Source: Shigella phage ESh4 | Length of the DNA stretch: 51,077 nt | Direction: 5' to 3' (one strand) | Sequence record: ON528718 | Shown here: positions 6,688 through 48,555 of the stretch, piece by piece | Layout: each line of letters begins with the position of its first letter | Position numbering within the stretch: the stretch's first letter is position 1 | The notes under the pieces: model-generated | What the model was told of the DNA's origin: nothing | Database searches by the model: none | The model's input: only the letters and a program-made list of their open reading frames with translations | Made by a program: the position numbers and the translations under genes

Positions 6688-6715
6688 TTGAGTAATGCCA
6701 TTTAGCGTGTATAAT
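6688..6715 (+). promoter_or_regulatory. sigma70-like promoter for rightward block
   Basis: TTGAGT-16bp-TATAAT upstream of ORF 6767. Confidence 0.4.
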
Positions 6716-6755
6716 ACACAATCATTAAATCATCGTTTAACAAAAAATGCTATTG
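6711..6755 (-). promoter_or_regulatory. conserved promoter-like unit (helicase)
   Basis: Sense: AATAGCATTTTTTGTTAAAC + 21 bp + TATTAT; divergent with 6688-6715. Confidence 0.5.
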
Positions 6756-6766
6756 GAGAATGAATA

Positions 6767-7240
6767 ATGAAAGAAAAGCGGATCGCGGTATCAACTGGCA
6801 AGATTGACAAACGCACAATCAATGGCAATAACGGAACTCGACGTGGTAAAGATAAGAAAAAGCGAAAGCGCCCTACAGGATACTATGTTTTAAAAGATGA
6901 AGTGCGCGCCGGGCTAAAAGCGCGACTTGATATCCTTATTGAGTATTACGGAAGTGTGTCAGCAATGGCAAAACGTCTTAACGTTAGCCAGCAAACTGTA
7001 AATCAGTGGCGTGTTCGCGGTATGATTTCAGCCGCTGGCGCTCAAAAGGTGCATAACGATTACAAAAAATATGGCTGCCAAGGCTATCGCGCGTCATTCT
7101 GCCGTCCAGATCTGCGATTTGATTCCAATGGTAAACCGCTCACAAAGAGATGTGATAAGCGTGAAATGTTGCGAGTGGTAAGAATGTCAGATTATGAACC
7201 TAGCGGATTCCTGTATAAACCTGAAAGCACTAATTGCTAA
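6767..7240 (+). CDS. HTH DNA-binding protein (Cro/YdaS-like motif)
   Basis: MAKRLNVSQQTVNQWRVRGMIS helix-turn-helix signature; basic N-terminus; GGAGAA RBS. Confidence 0.55.
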   Translation: MKEKRIAVSTGKIDKRTINGNNGTRRGKDKKKRKRPTGYYVLKDEVRAGLKARLDILIEYYGSVSAMAKRLNVSQQTVNQWRVRGMISAAGAQKVHNDYKKYGCQGYRASFCRPDLRFDSNGKPLTKRCDKREMLRVVRMSDYEPSGFLYKPESTNC

Positions 7241-14200: not shown

Positions 14201-15262
14201 TTAAATAAGATATTGCTTAAACTGGCGGCGCACCCAATCAGGAGTATCAAGGCAAACCTCAGGCTCACCGTTTGAATACGAAGGCCAAACGTCATGTTGC
14301 TGGCACATGGCAAACTGGTTAATCACGCTCATGTACTGAATGCGCCCGATCTTCAACTGCTCGCTATTCATGCGGAAAGCCAACGGCAAATAAGGTTCTT
14401 TCTTCTCTTGCGCTAACAGTCGCACAACTATAGGTCGCTTTTCTTCTGGATACGCTTTTCTGAATAAATCACATTGCAACGCCATTTTCAAATAATAGCC
14501 GTGATTGTAAGCCAGGCGCATAAACTCAGCCGGATTCGCGCTCATTGTTGTTTTGTAGTCAGTAATCACAATCGCCTCTGGATAAATAATATCGCGGCAA
14601 ATCGGTTGACCTTTTTCATCGTAACCATCAATCAGAGTTGCTGTCACGTTCTTTGTTACGTCAACGTGATCGCATCGCACTTTGACTTTTACGCCGTTGA
14701 TTTCACCGAACAACGATAATTCACGTTGTGCTGTCTTGCTATTCATACATGCGTTATGTTCCGGTATTGATTCCAGAACCTGGCGCATTGCCACGCACGA
14801 ATCGTAATCTTTAGCCTCGATTAACTGAACCCCATCGGCCCTAGCCTGGCTTTCTGCGATCATGTCGATTAACCACATGACGTTAAGGTCTTCTCCGCAG
14901 TCAACCATCATTTTTATAAGTTCTGGGTAAGTCTTTCCGGTTGTACCTTTCAGGCCAAATGATTTCAGCTTTGCAGCAAGCGCCGTTTGGCTGGTTATCA
15001 GATCCTTAAAGTCTTCTGGCGCTGGCGCACGGCGATAGGTTTTTTCGAAAAGCTCCTTGCTTTCAAAGTTGGTATGCGACTGCGTACCAAAAACTAGCGC
15101 CTTGCTCTTATCGTCACGAGGCTTGAACTTCCACGCTGCCGGGCATGTGCTGTAAATCTCTGCCAGGCTTGAACCGCTAACATAATCAGCCGTCCACGCT
15201 TCTGGATCGTGATAAAGCTCGTTGCTCATTTCTTCGCTGGTGTACGCCATAAACTTATTCAT
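14201..15262 (-). CDS. PD-(D/E)xK family recombination exonuclease
   Basis: D...ITDYKT core typical of RecB/YqaJ-like nucleases; first gene of leftward recombination operon. Confidence 0.65.
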   Translation of the reverse strand: MNKFMAYTSEEMSNELYHDPEAWTADYVSGSSLAEIYSTCPAAWKFKPRDDKSKALVFGTQSHTNFESKELFEKTYRRAPAPEDFKDLITSQTALAAKLKSFGLKGTTGKTYPELIKMMVDCGEDLNVMWLIDMIAESQARADGVQLIEAKDYDSCVAMRQVLESIPEHNACMNSKTAQRELSLFGEINGVKVKVRCDHVDVTKNVTATLIDGYDEKGQPICRDIIYPEAIVITDYKTTMSANPAEFMRLAYNHGYYLKMALQCDLFRKAYPEEKRPIVVRLLAQEKKEPYLPLAFRMNSEQLKIGRIQYMSVINQFAMCQQHDVWPSYSNGEPEVCLDTPDWVRRQFKQYLI

Positions 15263-15291: not shown

Positions 15292-15319
15292 ATTTTAGCT
15301 ATTTAATGCGTTTAGTCAA
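15292..15319 (-). promoter_or_regulatory. sigma70-like promoter (TTGACT-16-TAAAAT)
   Basis: Good -35/-10 pair 30 nt upstream of exonuclease start. Confidence 0.5.
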
Positions 15320-15690: not shown

Positions 15691-15733
15691 ATAGCACTTT
15701 TTGCTAAACGCCTACCGTAAGATCATGTATAGT
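15691..15733 (+). promoter_or_regulatory. conserved promoter-like unit (variant TTGCTA)
   Basis: ATAGCACTTTTTGCTAAAC + 21 bp + TATAGT, 32 nt upstream of ORF 15765. Confidence 0.5.
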
Positions 15734-20437: not shown

Positions 20438-20482
20438 GCTTTTTCACCTTTTGTGCTATTTGATTTGTTGAATTATACGGGC

Positions 20483-26268: not shown

Positions 26269-26895
26269 ATTTTGAATGCATCATTTCAAGTGCTTTTTGC
26301 TCCATGATTCGCAAGTCGTTTAGCGCCATCTCGCGATCCTCAACCTTGTAAATCTCAAAAAGCATAGGCAAGACATTATAATCAAATCCGTAAGCGCCAC
26401 CGCCTGAACATCTCCATTGTGTTTGCATTGCGCAAAATATATCCCATGATTGCATCATGCTTTCATCAAATATAACCTCTGGCGGATCTTCTCCTTCATA
26501 GTCTGCCCTTGTAAGGCCAACAGCCTCAAGCTCTGCATCTGTCGGCGGTTTCTGATAAAACAGGTAAACCGCCCTTTTTAGTTTTTTACTCGCTGCCCCG
26601 CAAGCGCTTTCATGTATGCGCTAGTTAATCCGATTGCTGTCGCTGGGTAGTAATCAAGAAGCTGTTTAATATTTTCTTCGTTAAATTCATCATCAAGATT
26701 CCAACCGGAAGCAAGGAAGGTGATCATTTCAACATCGCTCATCGGGGTGTCGGACGTGTAGCGTTCGTGAATCTCACTTGTTTTTCGGTGGCGAACTGTG
26801 AAGATAATTGTTTGATCTTCTCCGTTAGGCATTGCAAATTTCACTGGTAATTTAAAGTCAGGAAGCGGCCCAAGAGTTAATTTCATTTTTGACAT
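26267..26895 (-). CDS. tail assembly chaperone GT fusion via -1 programmed frameshift
   Basis: Slippery heptamer A_AAA_AAC (plus coords 26581-26587) overlapping G stop; -1 frame is open and runs into track ORF 26267-26458. Confidence 0.55.
26578..26895 (-). CDS. tail assembly chaperone G (zero-frame product)
   Basis: 105-aa ORF between major tail and tape measure genes; AAGGAGAAAGAA RBS. Confidence 0.7.
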   Translation of the reverse strand: MSKMKLTLGPLPDFKLPVKFAMPNGEDQTIIFTVRHRKTSEIHERYTSDTPMSDVEMITFLASGWNLDDEFNEENIKQLLDYYPATAIGLTSAYMKALAGQRVKN

Positions 26896-26906: not shown

Positions 26907-26952
26907 TGATAGCACTTTTTGTTAAAAGAATTGATTATGAATCGTGTATCAT
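26907..26952 (+). promoter_or_regulatory. conserved promoter-like unit in inverted (antisense) orientation
   Basis: Plus strand ATAGCACTTTTTGTTAAAAG + 22 bp + TATCAT, pointing rightward into the leftward tail operon. Confidence 0.4.
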
Positions 26953-26965
26953 GATTGTACAGTAA

Positions 26966-26989
26966 CAAAAAAAGGGGCGCAACGCCCCT
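26966..26989 (-). terminator. intrinsic terminator after major tail protein gene
   Basis: GGGGCG-CAAC-GCCCC followed on minus strand by TTTTTTT. Confidence 0.7.
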
Positions 26990-26994
26990 TGTGA

Positions 26995-27657
26995 TTATGC
27001 TACTTGAGAAGGTAGGAAGGTGAATCGACCTTTCAGGGATACAGACAGGGAAACAGTTTCCATTTCGTTAACGGTCGTTTGTGGGATCTCGTTAAACGAA
27101 AGGACACCAGCCCAGCAACGCATTTCTTTTGCTTTTGGTACATACATGCGAAGCGCCGTTACAGCGCCTGACTCATCTGCTGAACGCAATAGCGGATAGA
27201 TCGCGTTATCGTATTCGTGCGCAAAAGTGTAGGTAAGAGAAACGGCGCTCTTATAGGTAGGTAACTGCTGTTCCTGGTCGTCTGCCAAACACTGATAAGT
27301 ATAGTATTGCTGTTCGCCGCCGTCCTGCGACAAATCCTGAACGCAAGGGATCTCAGTCCATGCATCAATCTTGGCAAAAGATGCAGTGCCGCCAGTCGGG
27401 AACACGTTCTGATCGGTAGTATCAACACCCTCAAGAGTCACGCTTGTTTCTTCACCGTCAGCCTTTACACGCATAACACGATCAATCAGCTTGCCCCAGG
27501 AGGACGCAGTGATGATTACATAATCGCCTTTCTTGTACGCAGTGCCACCAGATGCAACAGTGAAAACGGGATCTTTAGCGTTTGACACTGCGGTTGCTTG
27601 GATTTCGCTGCCGCGATTGCTCTCAACGAAAATTTGCGATCCATTTGGTAAATGCAT
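26995..27657 (-). CDS. major tail protein (gpV-like)
   Basis: 220 aa ORF upstream of G/GT with its own terminator; AAGGAG RBS. Confidence 0.7.
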   Translation of the reverse strand: MHLPNGSQIFVESNRGSEIQATAVSNAKDPVFTVASGGTAYKKGDYVIITASSWGKLIDRVMRVKADGEETSVTLEGVDTTDQNVFPTGGTASFAKIDAWTEIPCVQDLSQDGGEQQYYTYQCLADDQEQQLPTYKSAVSLTYTFAHEYDNAIYPLLRSADESGAVTALRMYVPKAKEMRCWAGVLSFNEIPQTTVNEMETVSLSVSLKGRFTFLPSQVA

Positions 27658-29271: not shown

Positions 29272-29318
29272 TTTGTTTCCTCCAGATATGACAAAGGGCG
29301 CTTATAGCGCCCTCTTTA

Positions 29319-29647: not shown

Positions 29648-30622
29648 TTAACCTGATTTTTTCAAGCCAGTAATAAGCACTAGCGTAAACGGACGGTAAA
29701 TCGTCAGGCCAGTACATTTTGAAGTGCACGGAACTTTGAAATGCAGATCTTTTGGCTGCGCCGGAAGCATGTTAAATGCTTCTGGAATCTCGATCGACAT
29801 ATTCATTGGGTCTTTCTCATATACCAGGCAACCTTTAGTTCCAGCGCCATCAATATCCTCAAGCTCTGCGATTGAGTCGATGGTGATTCCGCTGTTTTGT
29901 TTCTGGAAGTATTCCAGATAACTTTCAGTGGTGTTTTCCATTCGAACGGAAAGAACCTTGCGCATAGACGGCGGAATCAGGATGTTGGTTGCTCGGTGCT
30001 GACCATTGGTGATGGTCTGAATGGTTTCAATAGCCTTTTCCAGTTCATCAGATGCTGCCTGCGGGAACTTAGTGTTTTCATCAGCACTTAACCAGCCAGT
30101 TGACACGATCTTTGTCAGGTTAGGGTGTTCAAACACCGAAAGAATCTTATGCGGCTTTGAACCCTTAAACACCAGGCGGTTAACCTCCTGATCATGAGCG
30201 TTTTGCGCTGCGTTTGCCTTGCGAGTGGAAAGGCTCTTACCAGTGCGCTGACCAGCCTTGATTTCGTCAATGGAGATCAAGAACGCGTTACCCAGGCGGA
30301 ATACTTTACCGAATTCGCTAGACATCAGCGCGTCAACGGTCGGCAGGTCGTCGGTGTAATCAGCGATAATTTTTGCGTAACCAACTTTGTCAAACATCTG
30401 ATATTCAAAAGTCTTATCAGTATCAGAAAGCTCATTAGTTACAGGGAATACACGAAGCGCTGAACCTGCCGGATATTCTTTCTCGTAAGCATTAGAGCGA
30501 ATCTTATGCAGTTCTTGAGCGGCCCAAATACCCATATCGGACGCATCACCTTTAACGCCGCGAGTAGCCAGATAGCTAGAAACAATATCCGCATCTAGCT
30601 GATCAAATTTTTCTTTTTCCAT
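29648..30622 (-). CDS. major capsid protein
   Basis: 324 aa, flanked by strong promoter-like sequence upstream and terminator downstream; T1-type capsid gene position. Confidence 0.75.
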   Translation of the reverse strand: MEKEKFDQLDADIVSSYLATRGVKGDASDMGIWAAQELHKIRSNAYEKEYPAGSALRVFPVTNELSDTDKTFEYQMFDKVGYAKIIADYTDDLPTVDALMSSEFGKVFRLGNAFLISIDEIKAGQRTGKSLSTRKANAAQNAHDQEVNRLVFKGSKPHKILSVFEHPNLTKIVSTGWLSADENTKFPQAASDELEKAIETIQTITNGQHRATNILIPPSMRKVLSVRMENTTESYLEYFQKQNSGITIDSIAELEDIDGAGTKGCLVYEKDPMNMSIEIPEAFNMLPAQPKDLHFKVPCTSKCTGLTIYRPFTLVLITGLKKSG

Positions 30623-30665
30623 TTTCTTCCTCCATATATAAAGGTCGTTAGTATGTAACGGACCA

Positions 30666-30693
30666 ATGATAGCATTTTTTGTTAAACGTGCAA
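30666..30693 (-). promoter_or_regulatory. sigma70-like promoter for major capsid gene (TTGCAC-16-TATCAT)
   Basis: Built from an inverted copy of the conserved element (plus 30669-30687). Confidence 0.45.
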
Positions 30694-34909: not shown

Positions 34910-34939
34910 TTTGATTATATATTGGTTTGTCGATTCGTG

Positions 34940-36508
34940 CTATTTGTTCCGCAAACCTGCCAATTTTTTCATTCTTCCTACCGGATCATCTGCCATGTTC
35001 ATTTCAATGTTAACAGCATCAATGATGTTATCAACAATATCATCATGAGGATGGCTATCATCGAATGTAAACGCCGCAACTTCAGCGAGAATCTCAGCCA
35101 GCATAGGATGAGATTCTGGAAGTGCCACGCGTCCGGCGCGCATTACTGGTGCTGCGTCCATTGCGCGAGTAACCTTGTCTTTATCTCGCTGAACTGGATT
35201 GATCTTGATCATGATTTTTTTCGCTGCGCTCTGAATCAAGCCAGTGCCAGATGACTTGTCTTCAACATGAATCCTTCGCAACGTTCCGCATTCTTTATTG
35301 CGCTTCCAGCACTGATTAACGAACGCAACAAAATTCGTCTCAAGGTCCGGTGCTTCCCATTTTCCGCGAACGCCATCAATGAAGTAGACACGATCTTTAT
35401 ACATCCCCCAATAACAGATCACGGAATAGTCGTTAAGCTCACCTGTTTTCTGCGCGGTATCAACCGTGATAAATGTATATTCAAAGCGATCCGGTTTTGG
35501 TAGTGTGCATTTCTCGCTGCTGCCGTAATACTGAAACCACTCTGTTTTAAACACGTTGCCGCCAAGCGCAACAGGCTGTTGCTGATACTGACTAGCGAAC
35601 GTGTACGGATCAGCATTTCGAAGTGCAAGTAATTCCTCCGCGCTTTCCTTAGCAGGCCAGAATGAATAATGAGCAACTCCATCAATCATCACTGGCTTAC
35701 TGGACAAAACATCGCGATCAAACTCAGGCTTTAACCAATCAGGAAGCGTTTCGCGATATTCCTTAGTAACTAGCGCCGGAATACTGACCACCTTAAACTG
35801 GATGCCGCCCATGCCGCCGTTTGTCATGAACCATGTTGAATCATTGACGTGTAGCCGTTGCTGGACCATTACGATTGGCGTTGTGTCCTTCATTCTACGC
35901 GATCGCACCGTGTTCTTTAGGCGCATGTGTCCGGCTTCGCGCTTCACCTTAGAAAGCATATCATCCGGTTTGTCTGGATCATCAAGAACCAGCATACCAG
36001 TAAATCCATCGTCCATGTAGCCGCCACGCAGACCAGTAACCTGACCACCGATAGAGCGCGAGTTAACTTGCAATTTAACCTTGCCACCATCGGTTACAAT
36101 TAAATCCTTTGCGCTCGCCTTCGCCAGTTTTCCAGGCCATAGCTCCTGCCATTCTGGAGAACCAATAATCTCTTTGATGCGGTTGCTATTCTGCTGGACA
36201 AGGCCATCACTAAACGAAAGATTAAGATTTCGCACCTTCTTACTTTTCAATGACGCATAAGGTGACATGTGGATCGAGAATATCTCTGTTTTACCGCTGC
36301 CTGGCGTTATGTTGAAAATTACGTTTTGTGACTCGCCTTTGATGATTTTTTCAACTTCGCTGCATAGGTAGCTGAAATGCCAGTTTCCTAAGAATTTCTG
36401 ACCTTGCAATAATTGAAACCAAATGCGGATCATCTTTTCGAATGAATATTCGCTCATTTCCTTAACGGCGCGTTTCTGCGCCGCTGTTAAGTCTTCCCAA
36501 ATCAGCAT
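34940..36508 (-). CDS. terL: terminase large subunit
   Basis: Walker A-like ITPGSGKT, Walker B-like LVLDDPD, C-terminal nuclease-like acidic residues; 522 aa. Confidence 0.85.
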   Translation of the reverse strand: MLIWEDLTAAQKRAVKEMSEYSFEKMIRIWFQLLQGQKFLGNWHFSYLCSEVEKIIKGESQNVIFNITPGSGKTEIFSIHMSPYASLKSKKVRNLNLSFSDGLVQQNSNRIKEIIGSPEWQELWPGKLAKASAKDLIVTDGGKVKLQVNSRSIGGQVTGLRGGYMDDGFTGMLVLDDPDKPDDMLSKVKREAGHMRLKNTVRSRRMKDTTPIVMVQQRLHVNDSTWFMTNGGMGGIQFKVVSIPALVTKEYRETLPDWLKPEFDRDVLSSKPVMIDGVAHYSFWPAKESAEELLALRNADPYTFASQYQQQPVALGGNVFKTEWFQYYGSSEKCTLPKPDRFEYTFITVDTAQKTGELNDYSVICYWGMYKDRVYFIDGVRGKWEAPDLETNFVAFVNQCWKRNKECGTLRRIHVEDKSSGTGLIQSAAKKIMIKINPVQRDKDKVTRAMDAAPVMRAGRVALPESHPMLAEILAEVAAFTFDDSHPHDDIVDNIIDAVNIEMNMADDPVGRMKKLAGLRNK

Positions 36509-46511: not shown

Positions 46512-46555
46512 ATAGCATTTTTTGTTAAAACCGATGCGCCTATGATTGGTATATT
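46510..46555 (+). promoter_or_regulatory. conserved promoter-like unit
   Basis: AAATAGCATTTTTTGTTAAAAC + 22 bp + TATATT; -10 lies in loop of CGATGCGC...GCGCATCG dyad. Confidence 0.55.
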
Positions 46556-46586
46556 ATGCGCATCGACAACGAACGAGGATTTAAAA

Positions 46587-48524: not shown

Positions 48525-48555
48525 CACTTCACCGAAACGAAAGGAGGAATAAACG

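Follow-up and report, generated by a model that had tools for sequence, protein, structure and literature searches.

Coliphage T1 is a classical phage that orders early and late transcription with neither a polymerase nor a sigma factor of its own. Class II activator sites are known in both bacteria and phages, examples being those for CRP or FNR at -41.5, for lambda cI at OR2, from where it activates PRM, and for phage Mu Mor at -51 to -33. In the 2024 reannotation of phage TLS, Kropinski, Misra and colleagues described a 21-nt direct repeat with the consensus aaATAGCACnnnTTGnTAAAA, present in 18 intergenic copies that are oriented with transcription and lie about 76 nt before start codons, and noted the same repeat in T1, Rtp and Rogue1 as well (PMC11447400). 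The function of the repeat was given as an open question, the ideas offered being a stoperator, an enhancer and an UP element, and in Table S1 of that paper one copy, DR7, is placed on the negative strand (15044-15024) within the positive-strand late region (PMC11447400). For bidirectional promoters of Escherichia coli it has been reported that activating one direction represses the other via polymerase competition, that a regulator which is bound and does not activate leaves the opposite direction unblocked, and that the common separations between the two starts are 18, 10 and 23 bp (PMC12825309). When we searched the literature for T1-like transcriptomes, start sites and the motif sequence, the TLS paper alone was found, and the RNA-seq in another paper covers a T5-like phage only (PMC13250531).

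Here we report on the repeat in the genome of a T1-like phage. The first-pass annotation of this DNA had taken the repeat for a new promoter unit, and it is in fact the 21-nt direct repeat already published for TLS and T1 (PMC11447400). The repeat family is thus known, and so are antisense and bidirectional promoters, and it is their combination at this locus that is a new variant. This combination appears to be a conserved antisense repeat-type promoter that is interdigitated with a terminator-embedded sigma70 promoter, together with the same putative operator built into the promoter of the major capsid gene and into the regulator's own promoter.

The window, i.e. the whole 51-kb stretch of DNA that was analysed (51,077 nt), is a T1-like siphophage genome, complete or nearly so (Hanrivervirus, Tempevirinae, Drexlerviridae), and its late region is 96-97% identical to that of Escherichia phages grams, aalborv, haarsle and herni. 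The features in and around the gap between the tail genes V and G (the V-G gap), together with the capsid gene, are as follows:

26578-26895 (to 26907 with the ribosome binding site, RBS), minus strand: coding sequence of G, tail assembly chaperone (Pfam Phage_TAC_4)
26907-26902, minus strand: AAGGAG, RBS of G, which adjoins the reverse complement of the V-G repeat copy
26909-26928, plus strand: inverted repeat copy ATAGCACTTTTTGTTAAAAG, core TAGCA-N5-TGTTA, 32 bits against 18 for the best shuffle
26929-26946, plus strand: antisense spacer, 18 nt, sequence not conserved
26947-26952, plus strand: TATCAT, -10 of the putative antisense promoter P_as, exactly 18 nt past the repeat
26959, plus strand: predicted antisense start, an A seven nt past the -10, placed by spacing; the T before it and the A itself are a conserved context
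26947, minus strand: predicted start of the sense promoter of G (P_G), placed by the position of its -10; it diverges from the antisense start at a distance of 12 bp
26959-26954, minus strand: TACAAT, -10 of P_G, 1 nt from the antisense -10 on the opposite strand
26982-26977, minus strand: TTGCGC, -35 of P_G, within the V terminator (loop and 3' arm) and separated from the -10 by 17 nt
26990-26965, minus strand: V intrinsic terminator (hairpin 26990-26972 plus T-run), annotated at the same place in T1 and KP36
26995-27657, minus strand: V, major tail tube protein (Pfam Phage_tail_3), the target of any antisense transcript
29648-30622, minus strand: major capsid protein gene (Pfam Major_capside)

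The 20-mer ATAGCACTTTTTGTTAAAAG has 14 matches in the window at no more than three mismatches (0.01 expected), and a looser pattern together with a weight matrix gave about 20 window copies, 18 of which score at least 22 bits, compared to 18 bits for the best shuffle. All strong window copies point to their downstream gene except for two, one in the V-G gap and one upstream of the capsid gene, and these are inverted just as the first-pass annotation had stated. Both are intergenic and on the strand opposite all flanking genes, and their antisense orientation is shared by T1, TLS (DR7, which is the homologue of the capsid-gene copy) and most relatives.

The canonical units of the window have TAnnnT or CAnnnT 17-18 nt downstream of the repeat and a start codon about 55-75 nt downstream. 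The canonical unit was surveyed in 53 copies with at most one mismatch, taken from the window, T1 (NC_005833) and Klebsiella phage KP36 (NC_029099). In these three genomes a (T/C)AnnnT hexamer is present at +18 in 41 of the 53 copies and at +17 in five, the background for TAnnnT being 1.1-1.5% per position. The core of the repeat is the dyad TAGCA-N5-TGYTA, with TAGCA in 50 copies and TGCTA or TGTTA in 49. When the hexamer is set at -12 to -7 the repeat covers -50 to -31 and the dyad is centred at -41.5/-42. At the 7th nt past the hexamer, many canonical units of the window, T1 and KP36 also share a leader, which is a C followed by ATCGAAACGA or by a sequence close to it; this shared leader fixes the start site of the canonical units, and with it the position of the dyad centre, and the predicted start would be the A of CATCGAAACGA.

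By eye, no consensus -35 at 16-18 nt was present among the 18 strong window copies. At the -35 position itself are the final six bases of the repeat, which agree with TTGACA at only 2-4 of 6 positions, the TTGnTA within canonical repeats is 22 nt from the hexamer, and TGn precedes the hexamer in about half of the T1 units (by eye). We infer that the repeat-type promoters use a host sigma70 -10 and need something at the repeat instead of a -35. Class II promoters likewise combine a good -10 and no usable -35 with a dyad near -41.5 that overlaps the -35 position. Unlike the class II examples, the T1-group repeat has half-sites of 5 bp and asymmetric A-rich flanks, it is present at about 20 near-identical sites per genome, and its activator is a candidate only. 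Compared to the published TLS/T1 family (some 18 copies in each genome, intergenic and ahead of start codons), the element is the same; the +18 hexamer, the dyad core, the -41.5 geometry and the fusion to the capsid promoter are absent from the TLS paper, as is the antisense V-G unit, which TLS itself lacks (PMC11447400).

Several other identities of the repeat were considered and rejected. Read as a sigma54 promoter (TGGCAC-N5-TTGCW) the repeat is TAGCAC-N3-TTGCT, with AG for GG and a spacing that is 2 nt short, and a sigma54 start would lie about 30 nt upstream of where the transcript leader begins. An UP element is A/T-rich and located at -59 to -38; the repeat lies at -50 to -31, it overlaps the -35 position with no -35 after it, and it holds the invariant GC-containing half TAGCAC. 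No convincing match to IHF, CRP or Fis sites was seen in the repeat by eye. The canonical repeat read backwards as an extended -10 promoter (GTGCTATTT) has a sixth base that is not conserved, and no -35; a sense -10 at the V-G copy (TATCAA) was also rejected, as it is not conserved in relatives. At the capsid gene this backward reading does apply, both TATCAT and TTGCAC being present there.

With respect to the V-G copy, a full unit on the plus strand between the minus-strand genes G and V had been proposed, and the repeat at 26909-26928 and TATCAT at 26947-26952 are indeed as read. The 22-bp spacer assigned to the unit needs correction: the gap after the repeat is 18 nt (26929-26946), and 22 is the distance from the internal TTGTTA, which was rejected as a -35 of the unit for the same reason, i.e. 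a spacer of 22 nt. Compared to the TLS/T1 consensus the V-G copy has no mismatch in the specified core, and TG instead of AA precedes it. It covers -50 to -31 of the antisense promoter and +19 to +38 of the sense promoter for G. Judged by sequence only, the unit has the class II geometry, that is a -10, no -35 at 17 +/- 1 nt and a dyad near -41.5. It departs from the spacing of the TLS/T1 repeat, about 76 nt before a start codon, in that it is 13 nt from the start codon of G on the other strand. On the plus strand, no ORF of at least 20 aa with an ATG start was found after the V-G antisense start. The leader motif is absent, and the stable, variable hairpin that the family has around the -10 is not seen (z = -0.85 for the V-G unit of the window and z = +0.38 for that of T1, the family mean being -2.7). 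A V-G unit that is without the leader motif and the hairpin of the mRNA-producing units fits a non-coding role, as far as these features can be read.

To follow the unit among relatives, 77 related contigs with 5.5-kb flanks were combined with T1 and the window, V was located by tblastn and the V-G gap was read. The repeat is present in 20 of the 73 usable gaps and is antisense every time. It is absent from the V-G gap in the other 53 relatives, i.e. the TLS-like and Webervirus lineages, and because it is missing there the unit must be dispensable. Gaps without the repeat are about 40 nt shorter, the A...TA pattern is absent from them and the matching positions on the sense strand are not conserved. 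The 20 gaps represent 18 distinct V-G units, from phages with V identities of 59% to 100%, among them T1, a member of another subfamily. Pairwise identity among the 18 averages 0.94 over the 20 nt of the repeat and 0.38 over the first 12 spacer positions. In the +18 hexamer, positions 1, 2 and 6 are always T, A and T (identity 1.00), and positions 3-5 have an identity of 0.36, giving 11 different hexamers, most of which are weak compared to the consensus (e.g. TAGAGT and TAGGAT); TGn precedes the hexamer in most units. Both the architecture of the unit and the selective conservation of its parts are direct observations, and the pattern in the hexamer is that expected from purifying selection on a -10 element. 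It is therefore very probable that polymerase opens DNA at the V-G antisense unit. Since the -1/+1 bases of P_G are also the T and A of the antisense -10, part of the conservation of these two bases could serve the sense promoter.

While both architectures described in the first-pass annotation stood, its interpretation overlooked the conserved sense promoter P_G (TTGCGC-17-TACAAT, 26982-26954), which is interleaved with the antisense unit. A TAnAAT-type hexamer follows the V terminator in essentially all 73 relatives, irrespective of whether the repeat is present, with TACAAT, TAAAAT, TAGAAT, TAATAT and CATAAT as variants, and in the -35 the TTG and the 17-nt spacing are kept across lineages (TTGCGC, TTGCAC, TTGTGC and TTGAGG). 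A strict sigma70 consensus scan misses P_G as well as the capsid promoter described below, the -35s of which match at TTG only, and for this reason the case for these two promoters rests on conservation.

The two V-G promoters are interlocked such that the upstream element of each is inside the transcribed region of the other, the P_G -35 being at about +18 to +24 of P_as. With -10s that neighbour each other on opposite strands, a predicted distance of 12 bp between the divergent starts and conservation of both, the V-G gap has the composition of a bidirectional promoter, and since the predicted polymerase footprints on P_as and P_G overlap completely the two promoters would be mutually exclusive. 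The bacterial bidirectional promoters studied by the Grainger laboratory likewise have divergent starts a few bp apart and mutually exclusive polymerase binding (PMC12825309). Unlike in those systems, the V-G hexamers are adjacent and not shared, about 12 bp separate the predicted starts, and one side is geneless; of the two arms, one depends on the repeat and has no -35, and in the other the -35 lies within a terminator.

Upstream of the capsid gene the repeat is put to a different use, and the features there are:

30669-30688, plus strand: second inverted repeat ATAGCATTTTTTGTTAAACG, 29 bits, without an antisense -10 and preceded by TG, not AA
30693-30688 and 30671-30666, minus strand: capsid sense promoter TTGCAC-16-TATCAT, conserved, an annotated promoter in KP36

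At the +17 and +18 offsets this copy reads TTATGG and TATGGG, neither being a -10, and no antisense hexamer at +17 or +18 is conserved; the second copy thus lacks an antisense -10, as had been claimed. The further claim that it supplies the spacer and the -10 of a minus-strand promoter is borne out by the relatives, where TTGnnn, a spacer, TGn and TAnnnT are present in 77 of 77 capsid promoters. These represent 22 distinct versions, with a 16-nt spacer in 20 and the TG in 21, and with TTGCAC, TTGACG, TTGACC and TTGAAC as -35s, TATCAT, TATTCT, TATTAT and TATATT as -10s and an A-rich stretch upstream. In the window the TG at 30674-30673 (positions -15/-14) makes this an extended -10. The promoter spacer is the reverse complement of the repeat, and the dyad centre is at about -18, between the -35 and the -10. 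A protein bound between -35 and -10 normally represses a promoter, and a protein on the capsid copy would block the capsid promoter in this way. An antisense repeat is present 45-75 nt before the capsid start in most of the 74 relatives with an upstream region. In Webervirus-like lineages the capsid-upstream repeat is lost or decayed, and in KP36 it has drifted to ATATCACGAATCGTTAAGCC with the canonical repeats of KP36 unchanged, suggesting that an operator role of the capsid copy may be relaxed in the KP36 lineage and is perhaps not universal.

A third sigma70 promoter that is met by the repeat lies between the genes for a regulator and a helicase, which are arranged back to back:

6688-6715, plus strand: sigma70 promoter of the regulator, TTGAGT-16-TATAAT, identified from its sequence
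6753-6734, minus strand: repeat of the helicase promoter, the TATTAT of which overlaps the TATAAT of the regulator promoter
6767-7240, plus strand: Cro-like regulator, 157 aa, helix-turn-helix (Pfam YdaS/P22 Cro, PHROG 2856, PDB Cro-like chains)

The 157-aa regulator is 56-71% identical in T1 and KP36, and the layout, with the genes served both ways, is common to the window, T1 and KP36. Directly before the regulator RBS is the reverse complement of the helicase-promoter repeat. The -10s of the pair overlap and about 18 bp separate the predicted starts, which is the commonest class among the bidirectional promoters (PMC12825309). The layout looks like negative autoregulation, and this makes the 157-aa regulator the best candidate for the repeat-binding factor, a candidate link drawn from gene position and fold class.

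As the best explanation of these data we propose, tentatively and with slightly less confidence than would make it probable, that the V-G element is a maintained antisense repeat-type promoter that is bidirectional with P_G, that its repeat is a class II operator through which an activator excludes P_G, and that the capsid copy acts by occlusion. The repeat would be the operator for a dimeric phage protein, with the Cro-like regulator as candidate, and this protein, at -41.5, would recruit host polymerase to about 18 repeat-type promoters. In the V-G gap the activator would bring polymerase to the antisense promoter, and would thereby keep P_G from initiating and give rise to a non-coding RNA directed toward V, this RNA being a necessary product of P_as firing. 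With the repeat-type promoters off, P_G would be free. The reversed repeats would in this manner oppose sigma70 promoters, those of G and the regulator gene by competition and that of the capsid gene by occlusion. Given that regulators which do not activate do not block the opposite direction, the proposal also explains why the V-G copy has kept a -10 and is not a bare operator. What is predicted in this explanation is the binding of polymerase, the two starts, the identity of the protein that binds, and when and in which direction regulation acts.

It is at least as likely that polymerase competition at a bidirectional promoter is the purpose of the unit as that the purpose is an antisense RNA acting on V. 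The latter, which we regard as unlikely though worth considering, would imply an RNA that runs from about 26959 over the V terminator and the 3' part of V and that lowers or delays V, either by pairing with V mRNA or by collision with sense polymerases, as for lambda paQ on Q. The conserved promoter features on the antisense strand are in keeping with such an RNA, which would be non-coding since no ORF follows. The predicted fold of 26959-27060 has the V terminator hairpin, reversed, at +14 to +32 of the antisense RNA, then UUGUGAUUAU; this stable 5' hairpin could protect the RNA end, but the reversed terminator and its moderately U-rich tail might also stop the RNA at about 40 nt, and the model allows that the predicted RNA could end after the hairpin or run into V. 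Past the start we identified no conserved feature that suggests a structured or targeted RNA, and an Rfam scan of the whole window gave no matches. Untranslated RNA is also prone to Rho termination, which counts against this possibility, and the exact interlocking with P_G would be unneeded for an antisense RNA and yet is strictly conserved. A plus-strand terminator at 29295-29313 was considered as the end of the antisense RNA and discarded as uninformative, as its hairpin coincides with the terminator site of the sense operon in T1. The promoter paQ is within a coding region, depends on cII and takes part in a temperate decision. Lambda paQ/antisense-Q and P22 sar likewise place an activator-type promoter in a late-function region and against a late gene, and the V-G unit is unlike paQ in that it belongs to a virulent phage, is intergenic, is interlocked with a sense promoter and is known here by its sequence alone.

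Less likely again is that the repeat is an operator or roadblock only, with a stoperator-like protein at +19 to +38 of P_G that halts or attenuates transcription toward G, and that the hexamer is incidental. Mycobacteriophage L5 stoperators bind the prophage repressor to silence the lysogen and have no associated -10. They resemble the T1-group repeats in the many copies of one asymmetric site, in the short intergenic gaps and in the orientation bias; the T1-group repeats are unlike them in belonging to virulent phages and in having a fixed -10 at +18. The capsid copy without an antisense -10 would suit a roadblock, and so would the position of the reverse complement of the repeat, which directly adjoins the RBS of G and also that of the regulator gene. 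In addition, another late promoter is followed by a repeat-like half-site in sense orientation, immediately ahead of the start codon of J. A stoperator-like role was also raised by the TLS authors (PMC11447400). A roadblock, however, leaves unexplained the invariant T, A and T at exactly +18 in 18 diverged units, and at the E. coli bidirectional promoters a bound regulator is displaced and lets polymerase pass, unless it activates the opposing promoter (PMC12825309).

We consider it very improbable that the element works at the level of RNA, the reverse complement of the repeat in the 5' leader of G controlling G translation or stability. That the element ends 1 nt before the G RBS, and that the regulator gene has it placed likewise, would agree with this. 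Against it, the predicted G leader has no structure beyond that of shuffled sequence (z = -0.31), the canonical copies are upstream of their own starts and would appear in RNA in the opposite sense, and the conserved antisense -10 is not accounted for. A neutral recombination relic with no function is already disfavoured and hardly credible, for although the patchy presence (20/73) and the closely related V alleles that occur with and without the unit suggest module exchange at the terminator, the functional positions are invariant next to diverged neighbours (0.36-0.38) across subfamilies, T1 included.

Returning to the bidirectional promoter with its class II operator, these data provide a first concrete and testable hypothesis for the T1-group repeat. 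Here the inverted copies are informative as exceptions, in that they tie the repeat to a -10 at a fixed distance and its dyad core to the class II position, and the repeat is set against sigma70 promoters at three places, namely the regulator, capsid and tail chaperone genes. The V-G gap would then show how, in nature, an activator can drive polymerase competition at a bidirectional promoter.

An extension of this, which we think improbable as it stands, is that the single Cro-like protein runs the whole T1-type programme on unmodified host polymerase, with replication titrating about 20 sites as a copy-number timer. The repeat at -41.5 would then turn on about 18 early and middle promoters, and the backward repeats would hold off the sigma70 promoters of the regulator, capsid and tail chaperone genes. 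As replication multiplies the sites and self-repression caps the protein, the sites would become empty, the early promoters would fade and the late sigma70 promoters would fire. Any early or late timing of the repeat-type promoters is speculative: a repeat-type copy in sense direction is also present upstream of the portal gene, which means that these promoters are not purely early and that the timing logic is uncertain.

The promoters and the terminator-promoter combinations identified here are compact, portable modules that may be of use in phage engineering. Two further promoters built like P_G are present in the tail operon, at 23189-23161 and 20500-20472, and with P_G included the late operon has three terminator-embedded promoters.

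Hairpin arms flank or precede the -10 hexamer in the canonical units, i.e. promoter-linked repeats facing their gene with a TAnnnT-type -10 hexamer 17-18 nt downstream. For 46 canonical units from the window, T1 (NC_005833) and Klebsiella phage KP36 (NC_029099), folding of the 40 nt 3' of the repeat gave a mean z of -2.7 versus shuffled sequences and z was below -1.5 in 76% of the units; the hairpin sequence varies from unit to unit. Examples in the window are:

3215-3176, minus strand, canonical unit with hairpin
44311-44272, minus strand, same
46532-46571, plus strand, same
39201-39162, minus strand, same

Folding of units without a co-directional upstream gene, i.e. the antisense copy between tail tube gene V and chaperone gene G, the regulator/helicase unit and the units at 15691 and 45634, revealed no hairpin. 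Since the hairpin is absent from these, its role is probably on read-through RNA of the upstream gene, as 3' end or terminator, and not on initiation. From the seventh base past the -10, many canonical units also share a leader, C|ATCGAAACGA (variants ATCAAAACGA and ATCGACAACG), after which comes the RBS:

3175-3160, minus strand, leader
44271-44256, minus strand, leader
48525-48540, plus strand, leader

Another hairpin is positioned between the -10 of the major capsid gene promoter and the capsid RBS:

30643-30664, sense strand minus, hairpin and T-run

Its homologue in the related phage TLS is annotated as terminator T35. The predicted start of the capsid transcript falls within the 5' arm, and therefore transcripts derived from upstream would end here, while RNA initiated at the capsid promoter would not fold into this structure.

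Further promoters and a weaker repeat lie outside the tail operon:

6688-6753, bidirectional promoter of the Cro-like regulator and helicase genes, overlapping -10s TATAAT/TATTAT
15292-15319, minus strand, near-consensus sigma70 promoter TTGACT-16-TAAAAT directly 5' of the RecE-like exonuclease gene (14201-15262)
34926-34943, minus strand, sense-oriented repeat ATAGCACGAATCGACAAA, 14.5 bits

The overlapping -10s form the palindrome GTGTATAATACAC, the predicted regulator and helicase starts are ≈18 bp apart, and this layout is kept in T1 and KP36. Strong sigma70 promoters are very few in this genome; the exonuclease promoter is one of them, is a candidate immediate-early promoter and is probably the counterpart of TLS promoter P51. 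The weaker repeat and the large terminase gene overlap at the 3' end of the gene, and the repeat lies 55 nt upstream of the portal start; full-strength repeats occupy this site in ≈18 relatives, and thus a repeat-type promoter may serve one or more late (head) transcription units.

The tail operon carries three terminator-embedded sigma70 promoters and one half repeat:

26982-26954, minus strand, promoter between V and G
23189-23161, minus strand, promoter
20500-20472, minus strand, promoter
20438-20462, minus strand, sense half repeat AAATAGCACAAAAGGTGAAAAAGC directly 5' of the J-like tail gene start (20437)

All three promoters have a -35 (TTGCGC or TTGTGC) in the loop and 3' arm of the terminator, the T-run as spacer and, 17 nt downstream of the -35, a -10 reading TACAAT or TATAAT; the module between V and G is kept in essentially all of 73 relatives checked. 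The half repeat, downstream of the promoter at 20500-20472, is also the RBS region of the J-like gene and has counterparts in T1 (25021) and TLS (DR8). In T1, a sense copy of the repeat adjoins the small terminase RBS (8362).
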